From assembly GCA_050575255.1 (NCBI GenBank), contig JBNZDD010013730.1, positions 2,559,907 to 2,623,906 of the forward strand: a stretch of DNA of 64,000 nt, read 5' to 3'. The notes under the pieces are model-generated. The model was not told the origin of the DNA, ran no database searches, and saw nothing but the letters and a program-made list of their open reading frames with translations. Every line of letters starts with the position of its first letter. Position 1 is the stretch's first letter. Both the position numbers and the translations under genes were made by a program. Source of the DNA: Harriotta raleighana. Taxonomy: Eukaryota. Of the stretch, positions 11,701 through 63,500 are shown piece after piece.

Positions 11701-14700
11701 AAATTTATTTCTATGCTATGAAGGAAGGGGCAGGCACTCAATTAAGTGGAAATGTACAATTCCCTGTGGTGACTCTACTTCAAGATGGCAGATCTAATTG
11801 AAGGGTCCAGCCATGCTCCTGTTTTTTTACAGGCTTAATGATATGGGTGAGAGTGTTTTAGAATAATTATATGCACAATTGCCATTGCAAGGCTCACCTA
11901 TATTTTCCTTCTTCATGAAAGGATAAAGATCACTATACAATTTTATTTGAGGTAGATTGTGAGGTTTTAAAGGCACTATAATTTTTAGTTCTGTGCTATT
12001 TTCGGGGGAAGTTTTTTTTCTCTCCTTGGAATTTGAGGCTGTTCTCCTGTGGTAAAGGAAATACATGTTCATATCATTTGCATTGTATTTTAAACTACAG
12101 GATGAATCCTTTCTTATGGAAAGACTTAAAAATATTGAATGGGCTCCCCGGTGATTTATTCAACAATTCAGAATAGAAATGTTACTCTGAAAAATTAATA
12201 GAATGGAACTTTTACTAATTGGTGCTTTATTTTACTTCTGTTTTATATAAAATAAGTGGTGGGTCATCATTCAATCGCCAGAAATACTGCTCTGGGACTA
12301 CTCAGAGTTGCAGGCAATTAAATATCTTTAAAAATATATCCTCTGTAGCTGTAGACAGAAATAGACAGACTCAAATGTACCCTTCAAATGCAACAGCTTG
12401 ATTGCATAAAGATACTTATTTTTCCAGGTTGCAGTCACAGTTGCTCATGGTGTCGTGGTTGATTTTGACCTGGGCAGTCTATAACAACAACAACATTACA
12501 TTTGTATAGCGTCTTTTACGTCGGGTCTATTCTCAGTTCTGATTCTGTTAGCATTCATGTATAATATTTGGAAGAATCCACCATATTAGTGCTTGCTGAG
12601 TTTGATAAAGGTACATGATCTAATAAGGTTAGTTCCTTTAAATTCCTCCGCAATATTGCCAGGCTCCGCCACTACATCATTCCCCATGCACCGAAACCCT
12701 CATTCACTTCCAGTCTTGACTACGGGAACTCTCTCCTCGTCAGCCTTCCCAACTCCTCCCTTCACAGGCTGCAGATCATTCAGAATTCGGCAGCTCGTGT
12801 ACTCTCCCGCACCAGGCTTTGTGACCACATCTCTCTGACCCTAGCCCGTCTCCACTGGCTCCCCATCCCCCAGAGGATCGAATTTAAGATTCTTGTCCTC
12901 ACTTTCAAGGCCATTCACGGCCTTGCCCCCGCCTGACCTGCTATCAGCCTCCCCCACCCTCTGTTCAGCAGACTCAGACCTGCTCCACGTTAACCACCCA
13001 ACCAGCGGTTCAGCCTCTCTACCCCCACACTTTGGAACTTCATCCTGCAGTCCCTCCGCCTTGCTTCCTCCCTTTCCTCCTTCAAGGCCGGTCTCAAGAT
13101 CTTTCTCTTCGACCGCACCTTCGGCTCCCCCAACTCTTCCCACTCTCCTTTCCCCTACCCCCGATCCCCCACCCTGCTCGGGTCCTGACCTGACTGTTCA
13201 GCGCTTTGGGATGTCCTTCCGACGTGAAAGGTGCTATACAAATATAATTTTATAGTTGCTGTTAAAAATATTCAGACAACTTGTAGTTAAGCGATAATTT
13301 AATATTTAAACAACCCCTCAAAATGTGGCCAAAAAGTCAAATGTAAAAAGACAACAATGAGACATGACTTTTGAATAGCTGTTTACTGAGTTTGAAATAG
13401 ACTTAGCATTTCAGAGACAAATACGTGCGACATTGTGAACAGGAGCATGGCTTCACAATAATCATATCATATATGTATAATGTTCAGCTTGAACTTTCAA
13501 GGCAAAAAGCTGCACTGGAGCCTGGTATGGTTTTTATTTTTTTAAAAGAATGGAAGTGAATGTAGCTCGCACCATGCAGGGTAGCATCTCAGAGCACTTA
13601 ATAGTGGTGGAGCCTGATTCTGAGTTCAGGGTGAGAGGGGGAGTGGCTGTAAGCACAGTTGAAGAGAAAGGTTTTCAGGCTGAATTTGAAAAAGGGGAGA
13701 GATTGAGAGAGAGTGTTCCAGAATTTTGGGTGTAGTGGCTGAAAGAGAGACATCGATGATGGGGCAGAAGAAGGTGCAAGGGACGAGCAGGAGGCCGGTG
13801 ACAGTCTAGTGGAGGCGCTGGTTGATGGATTGGGGAGTGAGGAGGTTGGAGAGGAAGGGAAGTGCCAGAGAGTGAAGGGTTTTGAACACGAGTGTGAGGA
13901 ATATTTAATAATAATAATCCTTGCATTTGATTTAGCGTTTTTCACATCTTCTAGACGTCTCAAAGCACTTCACAGAATATATTGTAGAGTAAATTGACTA
14001 TTTTGTGGGCGAAACACAGCAGCCAATTGTGCATAGCAGTGTCCCACAAACAATCGTGGATTGAATGACTAATTTATTATAGTTTTTTTTGGGACGGATT
14101 ATTATTAGGAATGTGGAGTAAGGAAACTTGCTCAAGGTTTCACCCTGACCTGCCTGGATTCGAAACACAGGTCTCACGCTTGTAAACCGAGTGCTCTAAC
14201 CGCTGACCTGCAGGACTCCAGACCATTACATGCACATTTCAACAAGTTTTCTGTTTTAAATGATTAGGGAAGCACTTTCATAATGCATCACGTAGATCAT
14301 AGAAAAAGTGTGTAATGTATTAGTTTATTGGAAGTCATTGTTTAAGGAAGTTGTATAATTGCTACACATTTCACAAAAGGATGGGTTTTTCTTTCTCTTT
14401 CAGCAAATAAAGTCTCCTTACATTCTGTGGCCCATGAACGTTTAGGAGAACTATTAAGAGTATTAAAAGCAGTGATTAGCAAACACCAGTCATTGAATTC
14501 TGTGGACATTCTAAGTGCAGCAGGGACAGTTATTTCTAAAATAAAAGGTAAGTGGAACAATAATTTTTCAACTAAATAGTAATATATCAACGGTAAAACA
14601 AATATTGGTAAAATAAGTGAAATGTCATAGTGGTCTAAATTTGAGTTTTTTTTAAAATCTGGTAGATTAATCATAAAGGAGAATTTGCACTGTTGCATAA

Positions 14701-26700: not shown

Positions 26701-29700
26701 TGATTTACCATTTGGAAGACAAGTTGGTAATTGGTCAAACAAAAATTCCTGCTACAGGAGAATTTACAGTGCAATTACCAACACACTTGAAACTAAACCA
26801 GTAAAAAAAAGTCTGAGCTCACTTATTGCTGAGTAGTTTAATGTTCACAAAAAAGGACAGTATCCAAATTACATTTTGACAACATAGTATTCTGGTGTGT
26901 AATGTACGACTGTACTGAGTAGTCATATTTTACCAGAAAAATAACAATCTCTTAATTTTTTTATAGGGTATCTATCGTGTGAATGGAGCAAAATCAAGAG
27001 TTGAAAAGCTGTGCCAGGCTTTTGAAAATGGGAAGGATTTGGTAGAACTCTCCGATTTATACGCTCATGATATCAGCAATGTACTCAAACTATATCTCCG
27101 CCAGGTATTCAAATGCAAGATTCCATGAAACATAAATTAATATTTGATTTTTATTGTTGTAAAACCTCAATAATCTGACATTCTGAAATTCGCCAACTCC
27201 CTAAAACCGGCAAGATTTCAAAATCCATACGGCATAAAAAAAATTCCTGTGTCCAGCAAATTTCCCCCAAATTCTGCCATTACAATGAATTCATTGGCCT
27301 GGCCAAGGAAACACAGCCTGGCTCAATAAGAGCAATGCTGGTGATGAAGATAATGGGAAACCAAACAGTCCAACTTCAGGAAAAAGTTGCTTGCAGTTCC
27401 TGCTGGTGCTGCCGCTCTGTCATACGGTGATGGAGGTCGAGCATTTTTTGGCTTCAGTGCTGAGTTTACAGGTCACTTTATGTATGGAACAGGGCTTCCC
27501 AAGCCATTTCTAGGGTAGATTTTAAATAACTGCAATCTCCTAAATTTGGGAGGTGAGTGGGCTCAACCGTGCCGGATTATCGAAATTTTACTGTACTGAA
27601 ATGTAACCCTTTTTTGTCTGTCCTCTTGCAAGCTGCCAGAACCATTGATATCATTCCGCCTTTACAATGAATTCATTGGCCTGGCCAAGGAAAGACACAG
27701 TGTTAGTGATGAAGCTAATGGGAAACCAAACAGTCCAACTTCAGAAAAAAGCTGTTCAACTAACGTCATCAGAATCATTTTCAAAGTGAAAGATTTACTT
27801 CGGCAACTGCCACGGATCAACTACAAGACTCTGCAATATCTCATAGATCATCTTCACAAGTAAGTAAGGAAGCAAATGGGTATAATATATAAAATAGCAT
27901 TCCTGATTACATGGTTCAATATGGTACAAATTAATTGATTTTTATCTGTTGATCCTGTCTTGTTTCCAGATCCAGGATGGTTTATATGGTACTTCAGTAC
28001 ACGCAAATTCCTACACGCAAGGAATAGGCTGCTCTTCAGACTCTCTAATTTCATCTAATGCACATTGTAAAGATAGAAGATTAGCATCCCTTTTATTGTT
28101 CTTTGCTAATGTGCATTAATAATAGAGAAGCTACCTCAGTGGATTAATATTTACTATAGAATTTAAATACTTTTCGCGTTTTAATACTTAATTTTAAAAT
28201 CTAATTTTGAGGTAATCTTGGGACGTCCTCCTGACGTGAAAGGCGCTTTATAAATGTAATTTTGTTGTTAGTTGTTGTCATAATGTTGCTTTCCAGTGTA
28301 ATACTACTATGCTGTGATCATGTTTTTTTTAAAAAGAACTCCGAAAGTATTTGTCCCTCCAATTTTCCTCTTTCTCTTCCTTTTCCTCTGCTTTCCTCCA
28401 AAAATAACAAATTGGGTAAGATGTGTTTTTCTTTTTTTGCATTGATAGAGTGGCAGAGCAAGCTGAAGAAAATAAAATGTCAGCCAGCAACCTTGGAATT
28501 ATTTTTGGGCCAACTCTTCTCCGACCAAGACAGACCGATGCTACTGTGTCTTTGTCTTCTCTTGTTGATTATCCGTACCAGGCTCAAACAGTGGAACTTC
28601 TCATAACCTACTATGATAACATATTTCTTTCTTCATCAACTCCATCATCTCCTTTACAAAAGGGATGTCCATCAATTGAAGAGAAAGACAAAAATATGGT
28701 ATTTTCACCAGAGGAAGCTTTAAGTGAAAATGAAAGGCTACAATCAACTAGCAAAGTAGTAAGTGTGTCAAACCAAAGGTGGTACTTGTGATACAATTTT
28801 TTTTCTTTTCCATTGATAATGCTGTGAACTATGTTAAAGTAATACATTTTCAAGAATTGATCTAAAAAGAAATTTTAAAAGTCTTGTGACCCAACAAAGC
28901 TGAATTTATTTTATTGAAAAGTGGGAGGTGATTTTATATTGACCCCACCCTCTAAATTATGTGCCCTTCATAAACTAAAAATCATTCTTTATTGTTCATC
29001 TAAACATACAGTAATATATTGTATGTTCACAGATGATTTTACTAGGTTATTATTGATGGGAAAACTAGAGGTGAATGTATTTAGAAGGTGAAAACATTTT
29101 AATTTTCTATTGAGAAGCAATCACATTTCTGAATTACTTTATTCTTCAACATTGGCAGAGCTTTGGGTTGGCTGGAAGTGAGTCTGATTCTCCAGAAATG
29201 GCATCTTCCAGTGATACTTTTGATGTTGTGAAAGATCCCCAATGGAATGGAAAAGAGAGTACATCAGGTTGGTAGTTTTAATTGATCTACATAAATAGTT
29301 GTTTCAAAATAAAGATATTTGCTATCAAAAGCCAACATGCTAACCATCTTAAATTCACATTTTCTTGATTGTTGGCAATGTTAAAATAGTTTTATGTTTT
29401 GAAAATACTTACGCCTTAATACTGTGTTTTCAAAAAGATTCATTAGGTTACAGTAGTTTGATAGTTCCTTTAACATGAGCTTTTCTGTATGATAAACTAC
29501 ATTCCTGTTCTATAACATTTCAGGTGCAGTGGTCACACAGATTTCAGAGAAATCTGTTGGACCTTTGAAGAACTTACAAAGTGCACAAATTTCAGAAGCA
29601 CAGAAGTCAAACAAGTCATCACTAATTAACAAAACGAGTAAATCGCACGTTAAAGTTAATATGCGACCTCCCAGGACAAAGCCATTCATGCCTCGGCCTA

Positions 29701-31913: not shown

Positions 31914-33310
31914 TATTGTACATTTTATTCCTTGAAACTTGTGATTTTATAACAGTTGAGAAAGCAATACTCGGTTCCTACTTAACTGCTGTGTCTTTAT
32001 TTCCGGAGTGCACTTGCATCACCTATATAATAGCATGAAAAGTCCAAACGTTTTAAAGGAAAATTAAACCAAGCTATATATTGAACGTGCTTGATTTGCA
32101 CATTCCATTCGCAGTAAAATTATTGCTCTGTAACTCATCGCCAGCTTTTGAATTAATTTTTTTTTCTTGCCAATTTTTCAGACAAATTGATGCAAATGCG
32201 AATCTGAAAATCTTAAAATAAATAATATATTAAAAAGTAACCTGGGAATTGAAAAAGAGCACTAACTTTTTTTTAAAAAGTGCTATCCTATCAACAAACT
32301 GAATCTAGTTAGGAGATTAATAGTTTACTTTTCAGGGATGCACATTATCTTAAAATGCATCATAACATTCTGCACTAGATATAGTTTAATGCTGCCTCAT
32401 TCAGGTTTGAATCAATTGTGATTTGTTCAATTTTTTTTTATAGTGTTAATTTTTAGTTGATTAAAATAACAGATGTTTGAATATGGCATTATTGTGGAAG
32501 ATTGATTCAAAGGGTCTTTTCATCTGACTGTATCCAGTAATGAGATTCCAATTCAACATTTATGGAATACTTGGGGTGCCAGTCGAAGTGGGGTGGGTGG
32601 GGGGAAGGTTTCCTTTAAAATCCAAATTTAGTTTGGGTATCAAATGTTCTAGATCCGATAGTTAGGGGAATAAAGCCAGCAACTTCAGTTTATATTCTCT
32701 TGATTATTACAACAGGATCACGGTAGGCACAGAAGATGGGGAATCAGGAAGCATACAGTATATGAAACAGAGCATTTAGAAGTAGAGGGGGAAATGTAAT
32801 TTTTTTAAAAAAAAACTTGGATGTAATCCCAGTAATGACGCTGAAAACAATTTCAGATATGAGCCCATGGCACCTACTGAGGGTCAACAAACAAACACTG
32901 TGTGTAGGAATGAAAACCCTTGCTGAGACAACTGGGACAGAGTGAAACAGGATAATGTGAGGCCTGCATGGGGAGATCAGTGCAGAAAGCAGCAACAGAG
33001 TCTTGAACGTATTGCAAAACCAGAAAAGAAACTATGTTGGCCATAATACTGCAGGCTTTGTGAGAGATTCACAGCAGTGAGCTGGTGACACAGGCATGGT
33101 AATACAGATGAAGCTAACCAATGAATTGGGCTTCTTTGATTAGTTGCTGCCCTCAGGAATTCACTGGTTAGCTTTTAAATTAGATATGGTAGGAGAAAAG
33201 AGATAAGATTAGCTATTAAAACTGAAACTCAAACTATATTGTGACCCAAGATTACATTTAAACACTTAAACGCAATACTAAAATACCTGTTGCATAGGTA
33301 AAACTTAATG

Positions 33311-33610
33311 TGGAGTCCGGTAGCTCAGTGGATAGAGCACTCGCCTTACAACCTGTGTTTGAATCCAGGCAGGTCAGGGCGAAACCTTGGGCAAGTATCC
33401 TTACTCCACACACCTAATAATAATCCCTCAAAAAAATACAATAATGAAAATTGGTCATTTCAATCCACAACTGTTTGTGGGACTCGGTGTGTAATTGGCT
33501 GCCGCGTTTTGCCCACAAATATAGTCAATTCACTACAGTATATTCTGAAGTGCCTTGATGTCTAGAAGATGTGAAAAACACTATTATCAAATACAAGGGT
33601 TATTATTAAT
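33311..33610 (+). mobile_element. tRNA-derived SINE
   Basis: Head GGAGTCCGGTAGCTCAGTGGATAGAGCAC, family body and tail. Confidence 0.85.
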
Positions 33611-33875
33611 GATAAAACCTTTAGGTTTAAAAAAAACCTAGAGCACACTGATAATCACGCAGTTTACACTTGTGTAAATATCCTCAATTCTTGTATTTAC
33701 ATGGTTGTGATTTAGTTCCTCTGCTCTCCTTGCTTGAATTGATATATGGGATAGATCACACGTACTGTGGACAACTACTACGTGACAGGTGCTATAATAC
33801 AAGTTGTTCAATGAGAGCCATTGTAGGGTGATTGCAATGAGAGTCGTGAGGCTACTACATTCGCCACTACATCCA

Positions 33876-34192
33876 TAATAATATTCTTTGCATTTGATGT
33901 GCTTTTCACATCTTATCGACGTCTCAAAGAACTTGACAGAATATACTGTAAAGTGAATTGACTATATATTTGTGGGCGAAACGTGGCAGCCCTTTGCGCA
34001 CAGCAGTGTTCCACAAACAGTCGTGGATTGAAATGAACAATTTTTATGATTGTGGGGGTTTTTTTTGACAGATTATTATTAGGTGTGTGGAGTAAGGAAA
34101 CTTCCCCAAGGTTTCACCATGATCTGACTGGATTCGAACATGGTCATAAGTTTGTAAGGCAAGTGCTCTAAACACTGAGCTACAGGAGCTCC
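33876..34192 (-). mobile_element. tRNA-derived SINE (inverted relative to the 33311 copy)
   Basis: Reverse complement of the family consensus. Confidence 0.85.
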
Positions 34193-35281: not shown

Positions 35282-37436
35282 GTAAGTTGTTGTACGTGTT
35301 TCTTTACATTTTACACAGAATTCGTGCCTTGTATGACCTACTTCTCTACTTGTTTATCCTTAGATTCTTGATAATCTGAAGCAGGCCTTACTGTCTAACC
35401 CAAATCACTGTCGCTAAATCCCTGCTTAATTGCCATTGGAATGCAAGAAACATTTCTGTAGAAATATACAACAACAACAAACAACAAAAATTACACTTAT
35501 AGAGCGCGTTTCATGTCAGGAGGACGTCCCAAGGCGCTGGACAGATTGGTTCAGGACCCGAGCAAGGGAAAATGTTCAGGGCGAGGGGGGGGAAGGGTGG
35601 GAGCAAGGAGGGGGTAAAGACTCGAGAGGGGCGTTGAAGGCACGGTCAAAGAGAATACACGAATAAATTCCCTTTTAGACCTTTGGCAGTTTTCTTAAGG
35701 AGCATGTTAAACCTTAGTCTGATGAAAAAATAAAGTACGAGTGAAATGGATTCACACTTGAAATATTAGAAGAGGAGCAGACTTAGTCAACGTACATAAA
35801 CAACAACGGTATTTCCCTAAATTCTGGGAATATGTACGAGGGAATGTAGAATATTTCAGAAGCAAAACAAACTTAAAAGGAACTTGAACAGAAAGTAATT
35901 TCCTGATTGAAGGATATCACCCGAGATGTAAATCAGAATGTTTTGTAACAGAGACACCCAACAGATTGTACACCGAGAGTGGTTGAGAATGGTGGGTTGG
36001 CCTGTCGCATTCAAGATTGTGAAAAATGTTTTGAGTTGAGAACATTTGTACTGAAACTAATAGTTGTAATAGTTGCACATGTTTTCAAAACGGTCTGTTT
36101 CTCAACTGTAGATAAAATTGCAATCTAAAGCTGATCAGATTTAGCTGTGAATGTAGACTGCATATGCATTTTATTATTGTTTCAAAATTGCTGTTGCAAA
36201 CTACAATTCTGGAAGATCTAGAATCGACCTTGATTTGAATCCCATTTTGTTATTTTTTATACACAGTATGAGGTGTATGGTGTTGATATGGTCAATTCTG
36301 AGTTTTGGGGCTCAGTATTAAAGGATTTTACTTGGAGATTTAGAAATATTTAATTATCTGATTCAGGTGGAGAAAGTCCAGACAGGTGTGAAATCTCAGA
36401 TCACTTTTACTGCTGCTAAGATTGAAAATCATTTTTGTTGCTATTAAAATTCTAGTGTGTAAGGTGCACAATTCACAAATTGTGATGATGGAACTGTTTC
36501 ATATGAATCTATTGGTTTGCTATTATTGCTGCTGGCTTCCAGTCTTATTAAGACTAGTATGAACCAGAGTTTGTCATTCAGCATTCTACAGGTCAGCAAA
36601 ACAAAATCCCTCCCCATCATAAATAATTTGTTCTAATTGGATTAAATATCTGTAGAGAACAGCAACAAAAAAACTAATGCACCAGCTTTATAAGTACTTA
36701 GGTGTATGTACATAAGAGTATTGGTAATCCATTTCTATTCTGAATNAATGCACCAGCTTTATAAGTACTTAGGTGTATGTACATAAGAGTATTGGTCTGG
36801 AAATAATCCATTTCTATTCTGAAANTTAGGTGTATGTACATAAGAGTATTGGTAATCCATTTCTATTCTGAATCCATTAATGAGGTTTAGATAACCCTGC
36901 GTAAGATGTGAAAACATGTTTAATATTTATGATTTGCTAAATATTACTTTCCTTTTTTAATGGAACATCGTACAACAGTGCAAATGTAAAATGAACATCT
37001 TAAATTTGGATGAGTGGAATTTTTCTAACTAATTTATCATCATAATAATGTTTAACTTGACGGTTAATAAAATAATTACTGTGTAATGAACCTACAAGTT
37101 TTATTGTTTTTTTGCAGAAAAAACATATGCAATAGTAAGACAGTATCCTGATTGCAGGATTTCACCATAAAATATTCGCCATAAAATTAATTAAGTAGAA
37201 TTAAGGAAACGCAATTTCTAAATTAAGTAATACCTGTCTTGATGGTTGTAAATCTCAACCTCAAACAGATGGGTCTTAAAATGGGTTTTAAAAGTTGGTA
37301 CAACAACAACAGAATTAATTTCTAGAGTGTCTTTCACGTCAGGAGGACGTCCCAAGATGCTTTAGAGAGGATCGTGGCAGATAGAATTCACTCTCCTATC
37401 GTGAGATAGATCAAGAGGGGACCATTGTTAGCTCAG

Positions 37437-45500: not shown

Positions 45501-48500
45501 GTGTGGTTTCCAACTACAAAAACTCCATGTAAGTACAGTATAACTCAAGGTGTGGCGGTGGCAAACAACCTAGAGTGTTCCAGTCCATTCGAAATGAACT
45601 GGCAGTAAAATTCCTTATTGAAACTGATTTCGTGGAGATCCTGTAGCTCAGCGGTGAGAGCACTCGCCTGGCAAGCGAGCGACCCCGGGTTCGATTCCGG
45701 GCAGGTCAGGGCGAAACCTTGGGCAAGTTTCTTTACTCCACACACACACACACACACACACGCCTGATAATAATCATCCCTCCAAAAAAATAATTAATTG
45801 GTCGTTTCAATCCACTGCTGTTTTGTGGGGACACTGCTGTACGCGATTGGCTGCCATGTTTCGCCCACCTATATATACAGTCAGTTCACTTTACTGTATA
45901 TTCTGTGAAGCGCTTTGAGACGTCCAGAAGACGTGAATAGCGCTATATCAAATGCAATTATTATTTTTTATTACAGTCATTTTCACCTTAATGCAAACAT
46001 CACCCAAGCGCTTATAAGACTTATACGATAAATAAATGGAAGTATATTCCTCTTCCAATCTACATTAAATTCAATATAAATGTAATTGTAGAAATACTGC
46101 ACATGGCTGAGATTTTTTAAAGTTATTTTCCAGTACTTCTACAATTCTTTCTCCCTTATAAATTTTATCTGCTCTCGCCGGCCATCTTTTCATTGGGTTC
46201 CTTTGTCATTTTTGATTTTACTTTGATTTTTGATGAGTAAAGTAATGAGATTCATGGCATGATAAGAATGCTACACTGTAAAAAAAAAACCCACTAAATA
46301 TCTAATAATACTAACCTGTAAACATGGGGCATATAAGGAATAATTGCCAATGTGAGGATTAAAAGTAGTGTTGAATGTTTCAATGGATATCCTAGACTGT
46401 TTGTGTTTCCTTTATCAAAATGTTGAATATTTAGCAAAATTAAAACGTTTCAAGAGCATTGAATGTGAATTATCCCGATGTGTAGGCAAGGACAATTGTA
46501 TTTGACGATTCCTTCATGCGCCTGTGCCTCTGTTTAGATTGGCACGAGTTTACACAGACGCCCAGGAGTTGCTGTTCGATGAACCTAAGATCCATAAGTT
46601 GCAAAAGATCTGGTTGGACGTGAATTATTTATCGGAATTAATGGGTTCACTAAGAAGCAATCCAAGAAAATATGCAGGTAAGACTTAACTAGATTTTGCT
46701 TATCTTATTGTAGGTTATCAACCATCCTCAAAGAGTGACAGACTTTGTCTTGTCGTTAGCCTTGAACCAGCACGAATAACTTTGCGTTTAACACTGCTCC
46801 AATCTTGATGTCCAGATATTAATCCTTCAACTCTTTCTCAATTTTGCAATAGACTATCATGGTACTTTGACTCATTGTATACCATGCAATGGATTAAACC
46901 GATCCTGAAAAGTTTGCCTCTGCCTGTAAAAAAAATACTGTACAATCCATTGGCATTCAGTGCTCACAACCCAATGTTTATAACAACTGCAGACTGTGTT
47001 GAGGGAGTCTGGTTAAATACTTGGGATTCTGACAATGTCCACTGTAACCAACCTAAACGAGAGCAAAGAATATGTAAGTCAGTAGTTTTGAGAGGACTCT
47101 TTTATTCTGGCTGGCTTTCTGCTTTCATGCAGCTCCTCTCTTATTTTTCAGGGCGAGGCGTTCGAATCAAAGATTTTCTCAAGGAAGATGAAACCCTGAC
47201 TGGATTTCTCCTCAAGGATATCAAGCTCTCAGACTCGGTCGTTTATCAGCTGATCAACTCTCAAGTGCGGGCTGAGCAGGTGTGTACTGCAAACCCAGGC
47301 AAATGTATTCAATTGCGGAAATGTCTGCAGATATGACGGACTGGACCCGTGCGCTTGTGATGTAGCAATCTTCTTTTGTCCCTGATCCCCCGAATCCCAA
47401 TACCTTTTGCGGTTCGTTCATCCGCTGCTTCACAAAACATTACCCACTTTGGAGCTAGGTTTGATCTCTTCCTGTGCCTTTGAGTCTCTGATTCGCCACA
47501 TTGGCAACACACACGAGCAGAGACACTGACGAACAACAGCCACCAGGCAAGCTCAGGGCAACATTGAGAGGAACACCGTGGAGACGTGGGAGCAGGTAAA
47601 GTCACCTGGCCAAGGCTGGTGTCCAGCCTAAGAGAAAATACAGGAACTCATAGCCTCACATAAAACAGCCGGAAATGTCAGCGTTGGCATTTCTTTGAAT
47701 TAAAAAAATCAATCAGAATGTACTTTCCACTGGATTTTCCATCATACCTCGAAGCAAAGGACCCCCTGTACTGTTTCCCATTGAATGTCTAAGTGCTGAG
47801 ATAATTCCAATCTGCATCATAATGTCCTTTTGCTACTGGTTAGTGGCCCCCAAGACTTTTCCGTCGTCTGTTTTGCGGATGGAATGTACTCGTGTGGGAA
47901 GGACTGATACTGCTGGGATAGCAACACAATCCTGAAAACTCTGTACAGAGTGAGAAAGGATCTTTTCATATGCAAATAGATCAAATAATTAGAAAACATC
48001 CACGTATGCTTTGATTCAGAATTTGCGCAGACCTCACCAATTTAACCTTCGTTAGAAGCTTCAAGCCAAACAGTTTCTATACAACAACTGAGAATTCTCG
48101 CAGCCTGATTCCCTGGACAGAATGTATTAATATGATACATGGCTAACCCGCGGAACAGTAGCTTAACCTATCAAACAGACTGTACAGTGTACTTCATGTG
48201 TTCGTACATCTCTGCTGGAATGTCAGAGGATTTATGGTTGCCAGTGAATGATTGACTTTGTGGCTATTGCTGTCATTTTCTGTTTTACAGGCACTGGCAC
48301 AAGGCATGTTATTCACTGGTGAATAAATAATTTTGTTTTAAAAAAACACCTAACCAAAGTTTAAACTTGTCGTATGCAAGAATATACAATCACAGTCGGG
48401 CACATAAAAATGACTGAATGCTGGTAATGTTGGCTTGTCTTATGATACAACTCGGGTCAAAGGCCATTAGTGTATTGTAAGCTACCCTCTGACCAAATGC

Positions 48501-51500
48501 ATTCCTTTAAACTTTGGCTTTAGAGCGAGAGCCAAAGGTCAGTTATTACATTGCTGACGTGGGCAACATCGTCAAAGGTGAATTTGTCTTAAAGAGGGTG
48601 GTCTCGCTTTATTTTTGGTTCACAATATTGACAGTATCAGTGACGGTGTGAAACTGCCTGCTTTCAGATTTCTTTCGATTGAAAAAGAGTTTAAGGTTGC
48701 GTCTGCCTTTCTCAGTTGGTAAAAAGTTGACTTCAGCATTTGAGTCACCAGCACTGCTGCAATGGTGGTGGAGTGTGTTTATGTGGAGTTATGTTTTCCC
48801 CCCTCCAATAGACTCTTCAGTGAAACGGCTTGAATGACTAACGGTTGGGCTGTTTGTGGGAATTTGGCTGTTGAATTCTCTTTGAGAAAACATGATGCTA
48901 TTTCCTGTGATGAACTTTGAGTAACGTTGATGTTACAGGCACTGTAAAAACGCAAATTATTCATCTATTGTGTATTTTTTTCTCCCCCTCCTTTCAGTCG
49001 TCAATGAATCAGTGACACTGCACCTGACTTGTCAATGTTAATGTGCATGTCGACTCAGGGTTTGGGCAGAGTTTAGCAAGGCGATCTTGCTGACGATGTG
49101 CTCTGAGAGAGGTACTGAAAGGAGTTGGGGATAACGACTCAAAATTTTTAAACTTTTAGCTTCAATAGTCAGCCCCCAAAAATCCAGGCATTCCAAAGGA
49201 ATAGATCACTGGGAACTAGTCAGTACCTATCACCCACTCCCACTGCCAAAGAACATAGCGGAGCCAGAGATTATACAGATGGGGGGGCTGGGTGGGTGTT
49301 GATTACATGCTAACACACACACATTTTGTCCTCCTCCCTCATTAAGCTGTTAGGAATTTAATATTTCTTGCGCTAATATTTCTTGAGTATAATTTTTTTT
49401 TTGAAACGATCCTTTATGTTAGTTCTGTGACTCTCAACCCAGTAAAATATGAACTTTTCACAAACTTAAAGATGCCCGAACCATAAATTGTCCGAATTTG
49501 GACCAGATCTGTGTTTACAAGAATAAGCCACAGTTGCTGGTGATACGAGTTGTCAGAATCTCTGATTTTCCATTGGTACCCAGTCCAATTCCTACCAGTC
49601 TTTCTGTGCTGCCAGAATCCATTAGCGGATCCCTGTAGCTCAGCCACGCAAGCGAGAGACCTGGGTTCGATTCCAGGACTCCACACGCCTGATAATAATC
49701 CCTGGAAAAAAAACCCAATAAGAATTTGGTCACTCAATCCACTTCTGTTTGTGGGACACGGTTGTAATAATAATAATAATAATAATCCTTGCATTTGATA
49801 ATAGCGCTTGCTTTTCACATCTTATCGACGTCCCAAAGCGCTTCACAGAATATACTGTAAAGTGAATTGACTGTATATTTGTGGGCGGAACGCAGCAGCC
49901 AATTGCACACAGCAGCGTCCGTCCCGTCCCGTCCCCACAAACAGTCGTGAATTGAAATGACCAATTTTATTATTGTGTTTTTTTGGGGGGGATTATTATT
50001 AGGCATGTGGTGTGGAGTAAGGAAACTTGCCCAAGGTTTCGCCCTGATCTGCCTGGCTTCGAACACAGGTCTCAGGCTTGCAAGGCGAGTGCTCTAACCA
50101 CTAAGCCACGCAATTGTGCGCAATTGGCTGCCGCGTTTTGCCGGCAAATATACTGCAGCCAATTCACTTTACAGTACATTCTGTGAAGGGCTTTGAGACG
50201 TCTAGAAGACATGAAATGCGCTAGATCAAAAGCAAGGATGATTATTATTATCATCAGCATCGAATCCTCAAGATGATACTCCTCCCCTCGGCTTGGTTGC
50301 CTTGGGCCCGCACCTGGTTGTTTATACACTTTATTATTGAGACTGTGAAGATTCACACTCCGGCCTGAGTCATGGCATACAAGGACACAGGGACACAGAA
50401 ACCTATATTAAAGGTTTCCCAAGATTTTGAGAGAGAGGCCCACCAGTAGGCTTGCTGGGAGCTGAGGATAGCTGCTGGGGCATTCAATCAACCAGGTCTT
50501 TCTGCTGTTTGTTGGGGCTGAACTGCCTTGCGCTGCCACTGAATTAACAAAATAGTTTTGCTTCACTACGTTGATAATAAAGGATTTGTAAATAGCGAAT
50601 GCCAGATATGTTCTGGCCAACATCTGGGAACTCCACTCAAACACTGATCTCAGCTTCTGACTTGCACGAAGGCAGTGTGCAAGTGACTCCTAGAGGTTCA
50701 GTGATGACATATTGAGGCTCTTTATTTGCAAAATCCTTCTGCCAATCTGGCTAATTGAATAAAACTCGAATCATCATTAAAGTCAGCCTTTGCTTGTGTT
50801 GTTAACCCACCTTGCTAACATGAAACAGTTCACTGAAAGAAATCTTTTGACAATGAACCTTTTTGCTGACACATCAGGAATCGATTATCCAGTTAATGAA
50901 TAAAGGTAAATGGGTTTCTATAATTGTTCTTAAAATATTTGTGGAAGTTTAATTTATCAGTAAGTACCCCGGTACCACAAGTATGAGTTTTCTTTTGATC
51001 AGTAGATACTGTGACATTCTGGGTCTTTAACAAGGGAAAATTGCAGATATGCTGTTAAGATTTGCAATTTAAGCTTGATTCTCTGACTGAGCTTTAAACA
51101 CATGGACAAGTTTCCGATAACATGGACTTGGTTAACAAGTAGTTAACAATCTTCAATTGGGGAGCTAAATAAATTTCATAACCTGTTTTCCTTCACTACA
51201 AACTCCATCAGCCAAGGGATTGGAGGCTGGAATAATCAGTTTCATTCAGAGACGAGTAAAATAGATGAGTGTTATGTGTGTGCTACTGTTGTGTAAGATT
51301 CTCTTGCTTTTGCTGTGCTTACAGTTTGCTTATGGAGTTCCAGATTTAGCCCTGAAAGACATCGCTTGTAGCCAGACTCTTTTGGACCGTTTCATCATTT
51401 TCTCGAGTTGGCGAGGTCTGCACACTGTTCTCAATGGAATGTGTGTTCTGTCTCCACAACGGCTTCAGAGAATAGAGGACAAGCTCTACGACAATGTGGA

Positions 51501-54500: not shown

Positions 54501-57500
54501 AGTGTCTAGTTTCAAATGAATAGAAGCAGAGTAGATGTCCAACAAATAAAAGTTACTGAAGAAGAGAAGGTAAAACTCAAAGGACCTACTGTAATTAGTG
54601 TAGGACAAGTGGAACCACTTTCAGTATGCAAGTTAATTTGTACATGATATCTTTTTAGCTTCCAAAAGCGCTGGACAGAAAATCATTTGGAATAGACTTA
54701 CATTATTGGATGGAAATTCTGAATGAGGCATCGCCAGTATTACAGGAGGTATGGAAATTAAAACTGACATTAATTCGCTTTCATTTTGTTCAGTACTGTA
54801 AGCTGTAATTGTGACTCTGCAACACCATATTGTTTCCAAATGTTTTAGACAAAATCAGACTGCCCTTTGAAATGTGATCGATCATTAGATATAAAAGTTC
54901 AGGTGACCAAATCATTCTCAGTGAGTGAGTTTTAAATGCATGTGGGCAAAGTTCTGTAATTCCACCCCCCACCCCATCCCACCCCAAGCCCTGCCTATGT
55001 AAAGGAATTCACCCAAATCATTGCTGAAGCCTCTCTGAATCAGGTTTAGATCTGAGCTCAATTCTGGTTAGTCCTGTGCTCTGCACTCTGCAGAATAGAA
55101 ATTGACTAAAACTTTCCAGCTAGGTTTCACTTTACACGCTTACAGCTGGGAGAGAGAGAGAGGAAATCTTCATTGTCTAGTTCTAAATTAACTGATTAGA
55201 ATATATGGCAATATATATATATATTTCTTATCANTTCACTTTACACGCTTACAGCTGGGAGAGAGAGAGAGGAAATCTTCATTGCCCAGTTCTAAATTAA
55301 CTGATTAGAGTATATGGCAATATATATATATTTCTTATCTATATATATATATAGATGCCTGTATTTTTAACAGTAGTTCACTTCATCGCTGTTTGTAGGA
55401 TATCGCCTGCAAGCTAACTGCTGTGTTCATCTGCAAGTTCAGTCAGTAACTTGACAGAGAGCCTTTTGAGATGTTTCGATACGATGCGGGCGCTGTTATA
55501 AAACGCAAGGATTATTATTATGTTATCATTTAAATATTTGCGAATGACTCTCATCTACAGTTTATCAATACGGAGGGTGTTCAGGAACTGATCCCAGTGT
55601 TTTACCCACTCTTTCGGGTTGGTGGCCCAAGTACGTTGAGTCAACTAACAGACTTAATATCAAATCTAATCTGTGGTTACCCTGAAGGGGGTGGTTCCAG
55701 AGTCTTTTCTTTCAACTGGTACGAAGACAACAACTACAAGGCTTTCCTGGGAATCAATGACACGAAGAAACAGTCAGAGTATAAATATGATTACACCACC
55801 AGTAAGTCTGTTTCCTTTTTCCAGCAATATCTACTTGCGCTCCAGTTCCTGGCTATTAACTAGCGATAGGTGCTTGTGCACAGTTGAAGTTTAGAGCTCC
55901 AAAATTTGGAGCATTTTAATTTCTAAATCAGATCTGAAATAGTGGAGCTCCTGTAGCTCAGTGGTTAGAGCACTCGCCTTACAAGCGTGAGACCTCTGTT
56001 CGAATCCAGGCAGGTCAGAGCGAAACCTTGGGCAAGTTTCCTTATTCCACACACCAGCCCAATAATAATCCCTCCCCCAAAAAAAACGCAATAATAAAAT
56101 TGGTTATTTCAATCCGCGAGTGTTTGTGGGACACTGCTGTGCGCAATTGGCTGCCGCGTTTCGCCCACAAATTCACTTTACAGTGTATTCTGTGAAGCGC
56201 TTTGAGACGTCCAGAAGACGTGAATATAGCGCTATATCAAATGCAAGGATTTTTAAAATTATATTACTCGCTTGCATACTGTATNGTGGGACACTGCTGT
56301 GCGCAATTGGCTGCCGCGTTTCGCCCACAAATTCACTTTACAGTGTATTCTGTGAAGCGCTTTGAGATGTCCAGAAGACGTGAATATAGCGCTATATCAA
56401 ATGCAAGGATTTTTTTTATTATATTACTCGCTTGCATACTGTACCTCTGCTAGACTCTCTGGCCTTTGAGTCACACAGATACTCGACAAACAGGAATTAG
56501 CACCTATGCAGCCAGACTGGCTGAAGAAAATAGTCACAAATTCAGCAAATAACCTTCCAAACATCAGGGACGCAAGTGCAATCCTTTCCGCACATGATCA
56601 TCTGGTTATAAATGAGCCAACACTACCCAACCACAACCAGGCACTTAACTGTTAAGATACATTGCCTTTTCTTGACCCTCACCAGAGAGACCTCTGCTAT
56701 GGTAGGAAAGGAAATTTTTCCAGGGAGATTATTTCTGTACTCATCTGTAATATAGTGAGATGTATAGTNGTGCAATCCTTTCCGCACATGATCATCTGGT
56801 TATAAATGAGCCAACACTACCCAACCACAACCAGGCACTTAACTGTTAAGACACATTGCCTTTTCTTGACCCTCACCAGAGAGACCTCTGCCATGGTAGG
56901 AAAGGAAATTTTTCCAGGGAGATTATTTTTCTGTACTCATCTGTAATATGGTGAGATGTACTGGTTATGAATACACACACATGGGATCTTCAGATAGATG
57001 CTCAGAAAAGGTCAGGCTCTGAATGCTAACGTTTTGTATCACCTCTTGCAGCTCCGTTCTGCAACGCAATTAGTCAAAATCTGGAGTCCAACCCTGCCAC
57101 CAAGATTATCTGGAACGTGGTGAAACCCCTGCTCATGGGAAAGGTTCTGTTTGCCCCCGATACTCCCGCAGTGCGACAACTGATGAAGCAAGTAAGAACA
57201 GGTTCCCTTCGTTTGTGTTCGAAAGAATAAGTGGTTTTAAAATGGACGGCGCACAAACTCCTCTGCCTGTTCTCACTTGTGTGTGTGTCTTTGCTGAGCA
57301 ACGCAGAACGTGTTTCTCCGGAGGATCTGGGGGAGTAACAGTCGTGCAGTCCACGGCGTTCGTTGTGAGGAGGTTCATTGCCACCGCTTTCCACAGGACA
57401 GTCAAAGCGACATTTTTAAAATTTGTTCTGTGGTTGCGTACAAGCTTCAGATAAAGTAGCAAGTGTATCANGACAACTGATGAAGCAAGTAAGAACAGGT

Positions 57501-60500
57501 TCCCTTCGTTTGTGTTCGAAAGAATAAGTGGTTTTAAAATGGACGGCGCACAAACTCCTCTGCCTGTTCTCACTTGTGTGTGCGTCTTTGCTGAGCAACG
57601 CAGAACGTGTTTCTCCGGAGGATCTGGGGGAGTAACAGTCGTGTAATCCACGGCGTTCGTTGTGAGGAAGTTCATTGCCACCGCTTTCCACAGGACAGTC
57701 AAAGCGACATTTTTAAAAATATGTTCTGTGGTTGCGTACAAGCTTCAGATAAAGTAGCAAGTGTATCGGTACCAATAGACAGACAGACGCCTACATTGTA
57801 CATCAAGAAGTTGAGGACAAAGGAGACAATTGAAGGATCAGAACTTACTCTGTAATCATTGCTTTCAGCTGCTGTTTTTAAAAAAAAAACGTACAGTAAT
57901 AAGCAAGCTAGGCAAATCACAATCAAAATTGGTCAAAGTTGCAGAAATAAATATTCCGTAGGTGCGTAGAATAGCGAGAATGTGTTGATGACAGTGACAC
58001 ACGGCACTTGTATTTACAAAAGCTTTAATTCAACCATCGCAATGATTTGTGACACAATGGAGTTGGATGCGATGCCTAAAAACATTTTGTATCTGATGTG
58101 GGTCTGTGGAGCGTGAAATTGGCCGGTGGTGATGGACTCTGTACTGTCAATGATAACACACTGAGCAAGCTTCATACCCTGCCACATGCTTACAGCATCT
58201 CATGAGAGTGTTGTTAATCGGGACTGACTGCCAGTCCCAAATCTGTGTCTTTACACCCAGAATCAAAACACTACGTCGAAAATCAGGCACCAGTTTCACT
58301 ACATATCGGAAGATGAGTTTCTCATTTTGACTATTGTTTGATCCATTTTGATTTATTTTTGTTGCATCAATTTCAAGTGGAGTTTATTCACACAATGAAA
58401 CACAGGTGCAATTCTGTGCTGTTTGACTAAAGTAAAGGGAGGTAGTGAGTGCCACAACGACCGGTCAGTTATCCAGTTGGAGGATTTAGTCCCACGTTCG
58501 TTCCAGACACCTGGTGATGGATTGGGTAACATGGCATCACAGCAATGTTGTCTAACGGGATTTTCTTCATAGGCAAATGGCACCTTTGAGGAGCTAAACA
58601 GACTGAAGCACATGGGAAAGATCTGGCAGGAAATCAGGCCTCAACTCTGGGAGTTCTTCCAAGATGGTGTACAAATGAGCATGATTCGAGTAAGTGACCA
58701 TACCAAGGGAGGAACCACACAGTGTTGGTTCAGCAGTTACCAGAGAACAACAGCAAAATTACATTTATACAGCGCCTTTCACGTCAGGAGCACGTTCCAA
58801 GGCCCTGAGCAGTCAGGGATTGGGGCAGGGATGGAGTAGGGGGGAGGGGAGGGAGAGTGTGAGGGTGGTGGAAGGAGGGTATTGAGAGCGGCCTTGAAGG
58901 AGGCAAGGGGGTAAGTGAGGTGAAGGGACTGTGGCATGGAATTCCAGAGTATGGGGGCAGAGAGGCTGAAAGCCCGGCCACCGGTGGGAGACATGGAGCA
59001 GACTAGAGCCCGCTGAACGGAGGGGACGGGCAAATTGATAGGGAGACAACACTCAGTCGTGCCTTATTTTAGTCCCTTATGACATTGTCCCTTATTTTTA
59101 AAATTAAATAATTACGTTGCTGAAATAGACCAAAACATCTGGATATTTACATTCATTCCTTTAGTGTTTCATCTCTGTAGTTGTTTGGTTGCTTGTTTTC
59201 CACGTTAGTCTTTGTTCATTGCACATCAGTATTGTTTTTAATGACATTTTCTGTATAATTGCTGGGTTAAGAATGTGTGTTAAGGTGTGACACCATGTGA
59301 TATTTCTGATGGATCAAATGGGTTTGATGGGATGGAACAACCTTATTGACGGTTGACGGAATTGGCTGGCAACAGCCAGCAGGTCAGGCAGCATCTATGG
59401 AGCAAGGAAAAGTGAGTCAACGTTTTGGGTCCACCACCCTTCGTCAGAACAAGTTTTTGTTTCAGATTTGCAGCATCTGCAGTAGAGTAATGTACTTTGC
59501 GTTTTTATTGACAGTCGGTATTGGAGTGACGGACTATTTTTTGGGCAAATGCGTTTCCCAACTCAATAATTCTCTATTCGTTCTGAACAGGACACGTTAA
59601 GAAACCCCACTGTGGCATTTTTCCTCGACCTTCAGCTGGAGAATACGGCATTGAGCACCAGCGACATCGTTAACTTCTTGTACAATGGTCCCTCGGCTAC
59701 ACAGCCAGAGGAAACGCCAGATTTCGACTGGAGAAACGTGTTTAATACAACAGACCAGATTCTAACTCTGATTAACAGTTACATGGAGGTAAGAACTTTC
59801 AATGACAACAGGGTTGTGTCCCAAGCGCGAGTTCATTTTCTGTTTTTGTAGAGTTCTCTTGGCCTTACCTATAATCCAAACAGGTTCTGTGACTAAAGGA
59901 CTGGCATAGGATTTAAGCTGTGTATAAATATTCAATACTTGTTACCTCAATAAGATTAGCATTAAATAACTGTGCTTTGGTTAATACGAGATAAGTATAG
60001 CCAGACTTACTCTGAACTGAATAAGAGTTTGGGGTATTTTGAACCTATGGACCTCCCCTCAAATTATAAAAAAGAATATATACGGGTTTGGGCTATAAAA
60101 CAAAAAGTTTCTCCCCCTAGAAACTAATAATGGGCCTTAACATTAGTCCTGAGTTAACATTTATCCCAGACAACTAATTCTGGGCCTTGGAACAAACTTG
60201 TTCTAGGCTTTCTCCCTGGCAACTACCTTTTGAGTTCCACTGAGCCCCCAATCAGTAGATAACAAGCAAAGCAACAGTTAAGGCATTTTGACACTATCGC
60301 AGCAGTTTTGACGCGAGAGAATAAAAGCATTAGCAGCATCTTTGAAGTGAAGCGATTCAGGTTTATTGTCTCCTAATAGCTCACTGACAAGATAAGATTA
60401 AGGTGGTTAGCTAACCCGCAATTTATCATGTTTGGCAAGTAAAACAAATGTCACCCATGTTATTCTGTGCTTTCATACCGATCTTGGCACCGCAATGCTG

Positions 60501-63500
60501 TCTGTTTCTCTGCAGTTAAACGTTTGGAAACTGTACATTTGTTAGTTTTCATTTAAAAGTCCAATAAATAGGTGACTAGCCCAAACAGCGCAGAAAGTTT
60601 CGCTCCGTGTTAAGAGTCACGTTTAAACATGAACAGTTCCAAGAAGTTTTACATGAAGATTTTATTCTGCCTTGCTATTTTTTTTTCAATTGTTTGTCTT
60701 GGCAGTAATCTAGTTTTACAAGCTATTAGCAACCTGCATCTTTTTACTTATGTCCAGTGTCTGGTGTCTATTATTGGTACCCAAGGGATCCCATAAAGTT
60801 TATACCACTGCTTTACATTCTAAGCAAAGCTAGTAACGTATTTCCTTTGAAACCCAAGAAATCTTTTATTAGTTATACTGACAACACAAATGAAAATGTT
60901 ACTTTCTAACTTTGCTACTTACTAATCTGCTCCTCTGAGGCCATAACCTTTGATTACTTGGCAGTGTTTGACTCTGGATAAATTTGAAGGTCTCGCAGAC
61001 GAGGATCAGTTAACCCATCGGGCACTTTATCTGCTGGAGGAAAACAAGTTTTGGGCTGGAATTGTGTTTGTGGATTTGTATCCCTGGACAAACAAGCTAC
61101 CGCCACATGTGAAGTATAAGATCCGAATGGATATTGACACAGTAGAGCGTACAAATAAAATAAAAGACAGGTTGGTTTTACAAGTGGGAAGCATTCACAA
61201 AGACACGGCCTTTGTGGAGCTCCTGGAGCTCAGTGGGTTAGAGCGCTCGCCTTACAAGCGTGAGATCCGTGTGCGAATCCAGGCAGGTCAGGGCGAAACC
61301 CTGGGCAAGTTTCCTTACTCCACACTCACGTGCCCAATAATGATCCGTCCCAAAAAAAAACACCACAGTAATAAAAATTGGTCATTTCAATCCACCACCG
61401 TTTGTGGGAAACCGCTGTGCGCAATTGGCTGCCACGTTTCGCCCACAGATACAAAATATACCGTCAATTCACTTTACAGAATATTCTGTGAAGCGCTTTG
61501 AGACCCTTTAGAAGATGTGAAAAGCACTATATCAAATGCATTATTATTATTATTACTCTTCCTCCCGATGCAGCAATACATCCAGCCTTATTACTAGATG
61601 TGAAGGTCATGCAGAGACTGAGCTAGGCTGCAGCATTTCGAGTTATGTTGGTGGAGCGATAGCATGTGAAACCTGGGTCTGTAGCTGTATTGGGAGTTGG
61701 GCTGGAGTGAATCATGTACAGGTTCTGGTAGGAGAGGCCAAATATTTGCCCCCAGTGTCCCACACTGGAATTTTCTTTGTCAGTTTGACCTGAGCAATCC
61801 TTCCAGTACAGGACATGATTTCAAAACAGTCTATCTGAAGAGCTGGGAAATGTAATCTTGACCATGCGAACTGGAGACATAGTTCGTGAATTCAGTGCAT
61901 TTTCTTCTGGAATTGTAACTTTCATGCACGCCTTGCTAACACCAGTTTCAGGCAATACTGCTGTAATGCACATTTTGACATACCAGTCAGTTAGAACAGA
62001 CATTCTGCTCGTGCTCTCGTTAAGTTTTTGTGCGTGTTCTACTCTGATCCATGATCGACACTCAGTTACTCAGATGCAAGGAAACGTCCAACGGTTTAAT
62101 GCTCCCTTGTAATGGAACGTGTTACTTCCTCACCCCTGACCAGCACTCGCCAACCAAGTGACTTTTTACCCAGTGACATTGCCTATTCCCCGCAGGAATG
62201 AATACAGCACAAAATACTCTGGCATAAAATCGCACTGACGCAGTAGAATCTCAGCTCTTTAGGGGCATGAAAGAATTCACCCGCCCTTTCCCGGATGGAC
62301 TCAAACTGTTAGTCAAGAGACACCGAAATGTGATACTGCTGTACATCTTCAGCCAATAATCAGGAATTTTGGGGGAGTGCACGAGGTCTGAACCAGAGCT
62401 CGCCGGTGACTCTTTCTGCAGGCGCACTATCTGGTCTGATACTGAGCAAAAATGTTCACACACTTGGCATCGTTGTTCCCTGGGGGGTGCTGGTCTGTGG
62501 ATAGGATTACCACGGAATGTGATGCCCCAAAACGTATGGACACTCGCAGTCTGTTCTGTGATGGCAAAAGCATTGCAAAGTTTATATCCCAACTGTTGAT
62601 GTAGGTGACATGATTGAACCCATAAACGCTGCATGAAATCCGTCACTCCCAACTTTTCAATTGAAGTGTGTCGGGAAGACGAGTGTCTCAGCATGCATAA
62701 TAATACTGTAATCCTGGCATTTAAGATCGCGCCTTATCACGTCTTCCAGACGTCACCAAACGCTTCACGGGAACACGCTGTAAAGTGAATTGAGAAACGC
62801 CTGACCTAAAACGCTAGCGTTCAACAGGTTCCCTTTGTTCTGCTTCAATACAGATATTGGGACCCAGGCCCAAGAGCTGACCCCATCGAGGACTTGCGCT
62901 ACATCTGGGGAGGGTTTGCGTATCTGCAAGATATGATTGATCGTGGCATTATCAGGACTCAAACCAACGTTGACGTGCCATCAGGAATCTATGTCCAGCA
63001 GATGCCGTATCCGTGCTTTGTTGATGATCTGTAAGTCTGAGACACTACCCTGTGGGGAGGGCGTTATATATGAATGCAAGTTGTTGTTGTCATCGTTGTT
63101 GTGAGTCAATTAATATTAAGAATATAATACAATATATATACTATTTTGAACCCCCGAATATGTCGATTTCCAATCTTTTTGTTTCTTATACAGTAATTCA
63201 CACTGCGCTGTAACTAAAATCGGGAGGTTTTACGGAAACCTATACGGGATCTGGTACAACAAAACATGCTTAGAGCTTGGCTCTGATGGTCACCCGGGTA
63301 TGGGAGACTAATTGACAGAATGGTATCAATGGGGGAGTGATCCAACTTTAGCCTATCCAACTCATTTAGATCTGTCACTTAACTTAAACTCCATTATCAT
63401 CCGTGAAGTTTTAGGGTGCAGGTTAAATGCTCTTCATTCCATTGTCATCTTAACATTTGTAAAATACTTTTCTTCCCCCATTTCTGCGCTGTCTCCGGCA

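Follow-up and report, generated by a model that had tools for sequence, protein, structure and literature searches.

The intron between coding exons 18 and 19 of ARHGAP29 in the chimaera Harriotta raleighana contains a diverged copy of part of exon 19, lodged inside a short non-autonomous Tigger/pogo-type element (Table 1). This single copy was most probably written when a break within the resident element was mended by microhomology-guided gap filling, without transposition; the transposon is the landing site of the exon fragment, not the agent of its transfer. Positions are those of the window, that is, the whole stretch of 64,000 nucleotides that was analysed (contig JBNZDD010013730.1, positions 2,559,907 to 2,623,906 of the forward strand).

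Table 1. Features of the ARHGAP29 exon 18 to exon 19 interval and of the element within it (window positions)
Feature	Position	Strand	Basis
ARHGAP29 coding exon 18, RhoGAP domain, in-frame part	26970–27104	+	Pfam PF00620; tblastn with C. milii ARHGAP29; intron borders; donor GT at 27105
Phase-0 intron, 528 nt, of which the element makes up 437 nt	27105–27632	+	Intron borders
Non-autonomous Tigger/pogo-type element carrying the insert	27157–27593	+	Family consensus of 333 bp, 24-bp TIRs, TA flanks
Left TIR, decayed; TG as 5' flank where TA is expected	27157–27180	+	Family consensus, window sequence
A-tract in place of the family T-tract	27237–27245		Copy comparison: A-run of at least 5 in 0/16, T-run of at least 5 in 10/16
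Captured tract 1	27271–27315	+	Copy of exon 27653–27697, 42/45 matching
Left junction microhomology ATTC, common to element allele and exon	27271–27274	+	Allele in L008, L013, L014, L020 and L022 (5/28 copies listed)
17 additional bases, closest to a degenerate repeat of exon 27679–27697	27316–27332	+	Shuffle p = 0.02
Captured tract 2	27333–27389	+	Copy of exon 27698–27754, 51/57 matching
Right junction microhomology, 5 nt	27385–27389	+	Third base T here; C in today's exon and family consensus; T in relatives' exon
Right TIR (27570–27593) and intact TA (27594–27595)	27570–27595	-	Family consensus, window sequence
ARHGAP29 coding exon 19, reading frame intact, parent of the insert at 27653–27754	27633–27860	+	Pfam PF00620, tblastn, homologue search

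Results

A partial copy of exon 19 in the preceding intron

The preliminary description of this DNA had reported a diverged copy of coding exon 19 in the intron, and alignment confirms it: bases 27271–27389 agree with exon bases 27653–27754 at 93 of 102 aligned positions (E = 8e-26 in a BLAST inside the window), and homology stops at 27389 and 27754, 2–3 nt before the ends first claimed. The substitutions, 2-nt deletion and ~19-nt insertion given there are recovered as 9 mismatches and a net gain of 17 nt between the two captured tracts, which equals those two indels combined. The insert proper, between the arms of the element, is 110 nt long (27275–27384). It stands in sense orientation and comes wholly from inside one exon of the host gene; copy and parent are spaced 263 nt apart, and 60 bp separate the end of the element from the start of the parent.

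The parent was correctly named as ARHGAP29 coding exon 19, part of the RhoGAP domain (Pfam PF00620). In tblastn, the Callorhinchus milii ARHGAP29 protein falls on 22 coding exons of the window, the parent being the 19th, and two further hits, which are the copy itself, are not counted among the 22. The same protein is the best homologue (84%), sharks being lower at 62–74%, and a PDB search returned ARHGAP12 as the sole match. The exon 19 linker (27698–27770) shows several amino-acid-changing differences to two relatives, organisms B and C, within ~70 nt, and evolves fast between chimaeras.

The copy lies within a member of a dispersed element family

Imperfect ~25-bp inverted repeats had been proposed around the copy (27155–27181 and 27569–27595). 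Within the window alone they are weak (17/24 alike by manual count) and were not reported by the repeat finder; it is the genome-wide family that establishes them and places the element at 27157–27593. A genome search with 27140–27610 gave 2,204 candidates, of which 40 loci were scored. The right arm is matched by all 39 other scored loci, 33 matches to the left arm are listed as well, and the middle is matched by the exon alone, so that the ARHGAP29 fragment is absent from 39/39 other scored loci. Among the 29 fetched copies, which are those most similar to the window copy and not a random sample, the consensus is 333 bp long with 24-bp TIRs that are 23/24 alike; TA stands at both ends in 21/29, at the 5' end in 23/29 and at the 3' end in 26/29, and divergence from the consensus is 7.6–15.3% (mean 11.3%). 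The exact TA-plus-TIR pattern occurs 100 times genome-wide, against 0 occurrences of a control pattern. The terminal repeats thus have many other genomic copies that lack the fragment, and the arms of the window copy cover the whole consensus.

The TA claimed for the right repeat is intact. At the left end of the window copy, the first two bases and the TA are gone and TG stands at 27155–27156; owing to this loss, a target-site duplication is no longer readable in this copy. The A-tract at 27237–27245, 26 nt left of the insert, fits a 9-nt micro-inversion. In most family copies, the element also carries a sense-strand consensus 5' splice site (27550–27558 in the window, 79 nt before the true acceptor), and the family may on this account be prone to exonisation. 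Three family copies (L044, L046 and L062) hold mutually similar inserts that finish in short TTG/ACA repeats and are probably the 3' ends of a nested retroelement.

The suggested Tigger/pogo affinity was borne out by the 24-bp TIRs, the TA flanks and the sharing of these TIRs with transposase-bearing loci. The domain set CENP-B_N, HTH_Tnp_Tc5 and DDE_1 marks pogo/Tigger. Thirty of 127 DDE_1 matches were fetched, and the TIR was matched by BLAST in 5 of these 30 loci. L064, L065, L072, L076 and L089 are full-length or nearly full-length Tigger/pogo elements of 2.3–2.5 kb with TA flanks that form two subfamilies, 80–90% alike within each. Both translated ones are frameshifted: L072 (2.5 kb) and L089 (2.3 kb) hold HTH_Tnp_Tc5 and DDE_1 frames between TA flanks, and L089 a CENP-B_N frame also. 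TIRs of the small element are 17–21/24 alike with those of the intact-ended loci L064, L072, L076 and L089, and its right end further matches L089 and L065 at 29 of 35 nt. As these TIRs and the TA are common to elements with HTH_Tnp_Tc5/DDE_1 (CENP-B_N) frames, the small element is classed as non-autonomous and of Tigger/pogo type, within the Tc1/mariner superfamily. The internal sequences of L089, L065, L072 and L076, in contrast, do not match it, which makes them relatives rather than a demonstrated parent; no direct autonomous parent, as judged by an internal match, was found among the 30 of 127 DDE_1 loci. Many loci of the L063–L092 set carry long uninterrupted DDE_1 frames (480–725 aa) with none of these TIRs nearby, for example L063, L069, L070, L073 and L088, and a lower match (G000:C12596:4617-5156) has an open frame of 1,822 aa. 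The ones with no such TIRs nearby are possibly domesticated Tigger-derived genes.

Junctions and proposed mechanism

Both ends of the insert coincide with short matches between element and exon (Table 1). The element allele seen in 5 of the 28 listed copies agrees with the window sequence to the left and to the right of the insert and, compared with that allele, the window copy is short of ~5 of 333 bases, at an internal point ~0.35 along the element. In a simulation following the scheme of Tan et al., the chance of such matches was 0.015 for the 4 nt and 0.0045 for the 5 nt. The joint chance was 8e-5; it becomes 2e-4 when the majority consensus serves as reference and the left match is taken as 3 nt. 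The microhomology at both junctions, the loss of ~5 bases and the nearness of the parent uphold the earlier proposal that exon sequence was templated from a few hundred bp away by template switching during repair.

The 17 extra bases, which are more scrambled than the rest of the insert, may reflect a slip during synthesis, going by their resemblance to exon 27679–27697. A longer ancestral exon was rejected as their source: no such linker insertion is present in 15 aligned homologues, the exon of organisms B and C is free of indels in the rows listed, and a length of 17 is not divisible by 3. An extended homology of 13–18 nt between the break site and the exon end was likewise rejected as the cause of priming, 1.7% of neighbourhood windows scoring equally.

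On the proposed course of events, the element would first have inserted at a TA, and a later break or stalled fork would have arisen about one third into it. One end would then have primed on the exon 0.3–0.4 kb off through the 4–5 nt match, and ~100 nt would have been copied with one slip leaving the 17 extra bases. The second match would have let the new strand anneal back to the other end, and the copy would have drifted afterwards, probably neutrally. The survey of Tan et al. 2021 (PMC8277862), cited here from part of its text and tables, lists 370 Pack-TIRs from 100 animal genomes. Almost all of these were single-copy; 56.9% had the parent no more than 15 kb away, 67.6% had microhomology and 13.4% had exonic parents, and the median gap was 4.6% of the element. 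Gap filling is supported by the traits that this part of the survey assigns to it, namely a bias to templates in cis, microhomology, an internal break, a small gap and a single copy, all of which recur here. Templated insertions made by polymerase theta (TINS; PMC7165422, also cited in part) are similar in being local direct copies with short microhomologies and more than one round of synthesis, yet their primary tracts, as described there, seldom exceed 10 bp and derive from nearby flanks, whereas those found here measure 45 and 57 nt and come from 0.3–0.4 kb away; for this reason an SDSA/MMBIR-like route suits the tracts better than polymerase theta alone. The claim that the transposon captured part of the exon is accordingly retained in one respect and revised in another: the fragment does lie inside a TIR element, and the Pack-TIR label holds, but the element received the fragment and did not transport it.

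Age and order of events

Relative to H. raleighana, organisms B and C differ by ~6–7% over the exon and its flanks. Their contigs join the element's right end to the same intron and exon, the element middle not being spanned, and the element insertion therefore predates the split from B and C. At 3 of the 9 copy-versus-exon mismatches (27703, 27715 and 27752) the copy has the relatives' letter, and at the 27715 codon it keeps Asp, as in C. milii. It follows that the exon has changed since it was copied, and that the copy is not recent but dates from around the time when B and C split off. When the copy was set against that split by shared derived letters, no site was demonstrably both shared and derived. 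Runs X7 and X5 (both B), X8 (C) and X11 gave no contig of insert plus element flanks at 80% likeness, in a search of low sensitivity in which the B and C contigs carrying the exon were not aligned to the insert either. A contig of B at 27382–27412 is taken as a paralogous copy because its flanks differ.

Outside the microhomologies, the copy's own changes amount to at most 6 of 93 sites (6.5%), and its later drift was probably neutral. In counts that used 44 copies after removal of partial and duplicate loci, the arms differ from the consensus at 44 of 284 non-CpG sites (15.5%), an excess over the insert with a Fisher p of 0.016 (range 0.016–0.033). If only private changes of the arms are counted, they number 28/284 (p = 0.22), or 24/284 (p = 0.36) with the A-tract taken as one event. 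An age gap between arms and insert is thus suggested by these counts but is not firm, and capture likely came after insertion of the element.

These figures bear on a variant in which the exon was captured during the family's active period, when a transposase cut or excision was followed by gap repair off the sister chromatid that was aborted and switched to the nearby exon. Such an event predicts the same junction signature, elements with transposase and TIRs 17–21/24 alike (L064, L072, L076 and L089) are present in the genome, and the conservative age test fails to separate insert from arms (p 0.22–0.36). We nevertheless consider it unlikely: in the fuller count the arms have diverged more than the insert at non-CpG sites (p 0.016–0.033), and excision should, on the account of Tan et al. 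in the part cited, leave larger gaps biased to the termini (PMC8277862), whereas the gap here is of ~5 nt and internal.

A template of RNA in cis, with a nascent ARHGAP29 transcript or an R-loop patching the break, would agree with an insert that is sense, wholly exonic and placed by a break in the same transcription unit. It is highly improbable, given that the insert has neither an exon-exon junction nor poly(A) and that a DNA template accounts for everything. Exonic parents are moreover a minority (13.4%) among the published single-copy cases, which mostly stem from nearby non-exonic DNA in the figures cited from PMC8277862.

Copy number and integrity of the locus

Mobility of the fragment would be expected to leave it at other loci. 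A genome search with the fragment alone, which is non-repetitive, found the copy and the exon, two places in all (such counts are lower bounds), and no ARHGAP29 sequence was found in any of 59 other family loci (3 of which overlap earlier ones) screened for at least 25 extra internal bases; the extra bases in these 59 loci, which were not traced genome-wide, resembled nested repeats, tandem duplications or misalignment. No remobilisation is thus seen: the expectation of fragment-bearing element copies elsewhere was not borne out, a single copy standing beside its parent, and no further element copies with the fragment were found elsewhere in target sites of their own, as a multicopy (mobilised) Pack-TIR would have. 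That a mobile Pack element of the FoSTeST type hopped beside the parent, by chance or by local hopping, is accordingly only a faint prospect, although both arms are complete and the chimera could in principle be a substrate for transposase: one copy alone was found, the parent lies 60 bp from the element end, and the multicopy Pack-TIRs of Tan et al. are described in the cited part as always far from the parent (PMC8277862).

An assembly artefact, as for the near-identical duplicates that stand either side of a single N at several places in the window, has a negligible chance of explaining the copy, which has no N, differs from the exon by 9 mismatches and the 17-nt indel, and is bridged at its junctions by contigs of two public samples with 0–1 substitutions relative to the window. 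In run X2 a single contig spans 27200–27460 with 0 substitutions, and in run X1 two contigs bridge the left and the right junction, respectively; X1 and X2 are two samples from one study, so at least one differs from the source of the assembly. Both also carry at 27429 a 6-nt allele that is missing in the assembly and restores the family length, the difference being either a polymorphic deletion or an assembly error. The N-flanked tandem duplicates of the window (55126–55339, 56126–56443, 56576–56960, 57175–57767, 36698–36873 and 1970–2202) are probably assembly artefacts themselves. Another dispersed repeat of ~330 bp, with 70–82% identity, occurs at 13896–14220, 33310–34192, 45624–45974, 49768–50109, 55931–56279 and 61211–61564.

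Discussion

The copy fits the biological definition of a single-copy Pack-TIR formed by transposition-independent gap filling, a class already published (PMC8277862, in the part cited). It has 110 nt of non-TE sequence, where 100–5000 bp is asked for, between the arms of one TIR element with both termini present; one identifiable parent, with a length ratio of 119/102 or 117%, within the 80–120% wanted; and a single copy, a near parent in cis, microhomology at the breakpoints and a small internal gap. The initial designation as Pack-TIR-like is thus sustained by size, termini, a unique near parent, copy number, microhomology and gap alike. Two filters of Tan et al. would pass it over: its 93 matching bases lie below their BLAT score of at least 100 (judged from the match count), and the element end stands 60 bp from the parent, where no TE within 100 bp is allowed. 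As set out in the cited part, these filters target young and clean cases, and the authors themselves retain sub-threshold orthologues as Pack-TIRs (PMC8277862); the BLAT and 100-bp flank filters are detection filters and not part of the biological definition. The 100-bp filter guards against segmental duplication, which is excluded here by the continuous arms of the element.

Among the published single-copy cases, the gibbon Pack-Tigger1 is an example of the same arrangement, a host fragment between the arms of one TcMariner-type element, and the present copy also shares with that class its single copy, a near parent in cis, microhomology at the breakpoints, a small internal gap and an old, short element (PMC8277862, in part). 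It differs from those cases in that its parent is only 60 bp off and is a coding exon of the element's host gene, and in having an internal slip and a short insert (110 nt, against a median of 224 nt given there). The multicopy Pack-TIRs attributed to FoSTeST, such as frog hAT-N8_XT/CAPSL and fly Ssk-FB4, resemble it in carrying exon sequence inside a TIR element with template-switch junctions; unlike them, as far as the cited part describes them, it has no second copy that was found, no move away from the parent and no intact gene fragment (PMC8277862). ARHGAP29 is not mentioned in the text supplements of that paper, and our literature search for Pack-TIRs in sharks found no paper. The mechanism itself has already been described, and nothing new is raised on that side by the present case.

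Pack-MULEs have Mutator-type long TIRs and 9–11 bp target duplications. The element described here belongs to another superfamily, with 24-bp TIRs and a TA target, and does not qualify as one, although it has in common with the plant Pack-MULEs a gene fragment inside a TIR element (PMC8277862, in part).

The self-copy might conceivably be a poison exon through which ARHGAP29 dosage is adjusted, a decay switch made from the gene's own next exon. From the splice signals in the sequence, an AG at 27255–27256 would join tract 1 to exon 18 without a shift of frame, and the 17-nt slip would then bring a stop after 57 codons. A consensus donor, at 27553, is provided by the element. We hold such a role to be very unlikely: a match of frame would arise by chance in one case out of three, the donor is shared across the family, the T-tract ahead of the AG at 27255 is now the A-tract at 27237–27245, which leaves the pyrimidine tract weakened, and the rate of decay of the copy is compatible with neutrality.

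The copy is a small fossil of an older exon, as the Asp at the 27715 codon illustrates. As the survey filter drops parents within 100 bp of an element, in the part of the source cited, captures of an exon into the adjacent intron may be undercounted (PMC8277862). The case comes from a lineage with 0 cases in one published survey (elephant shark in the table of PMC8277862), and it provides a junction-resolved example of how old transposon relics gather pieces of host exons through DNA repair alone.
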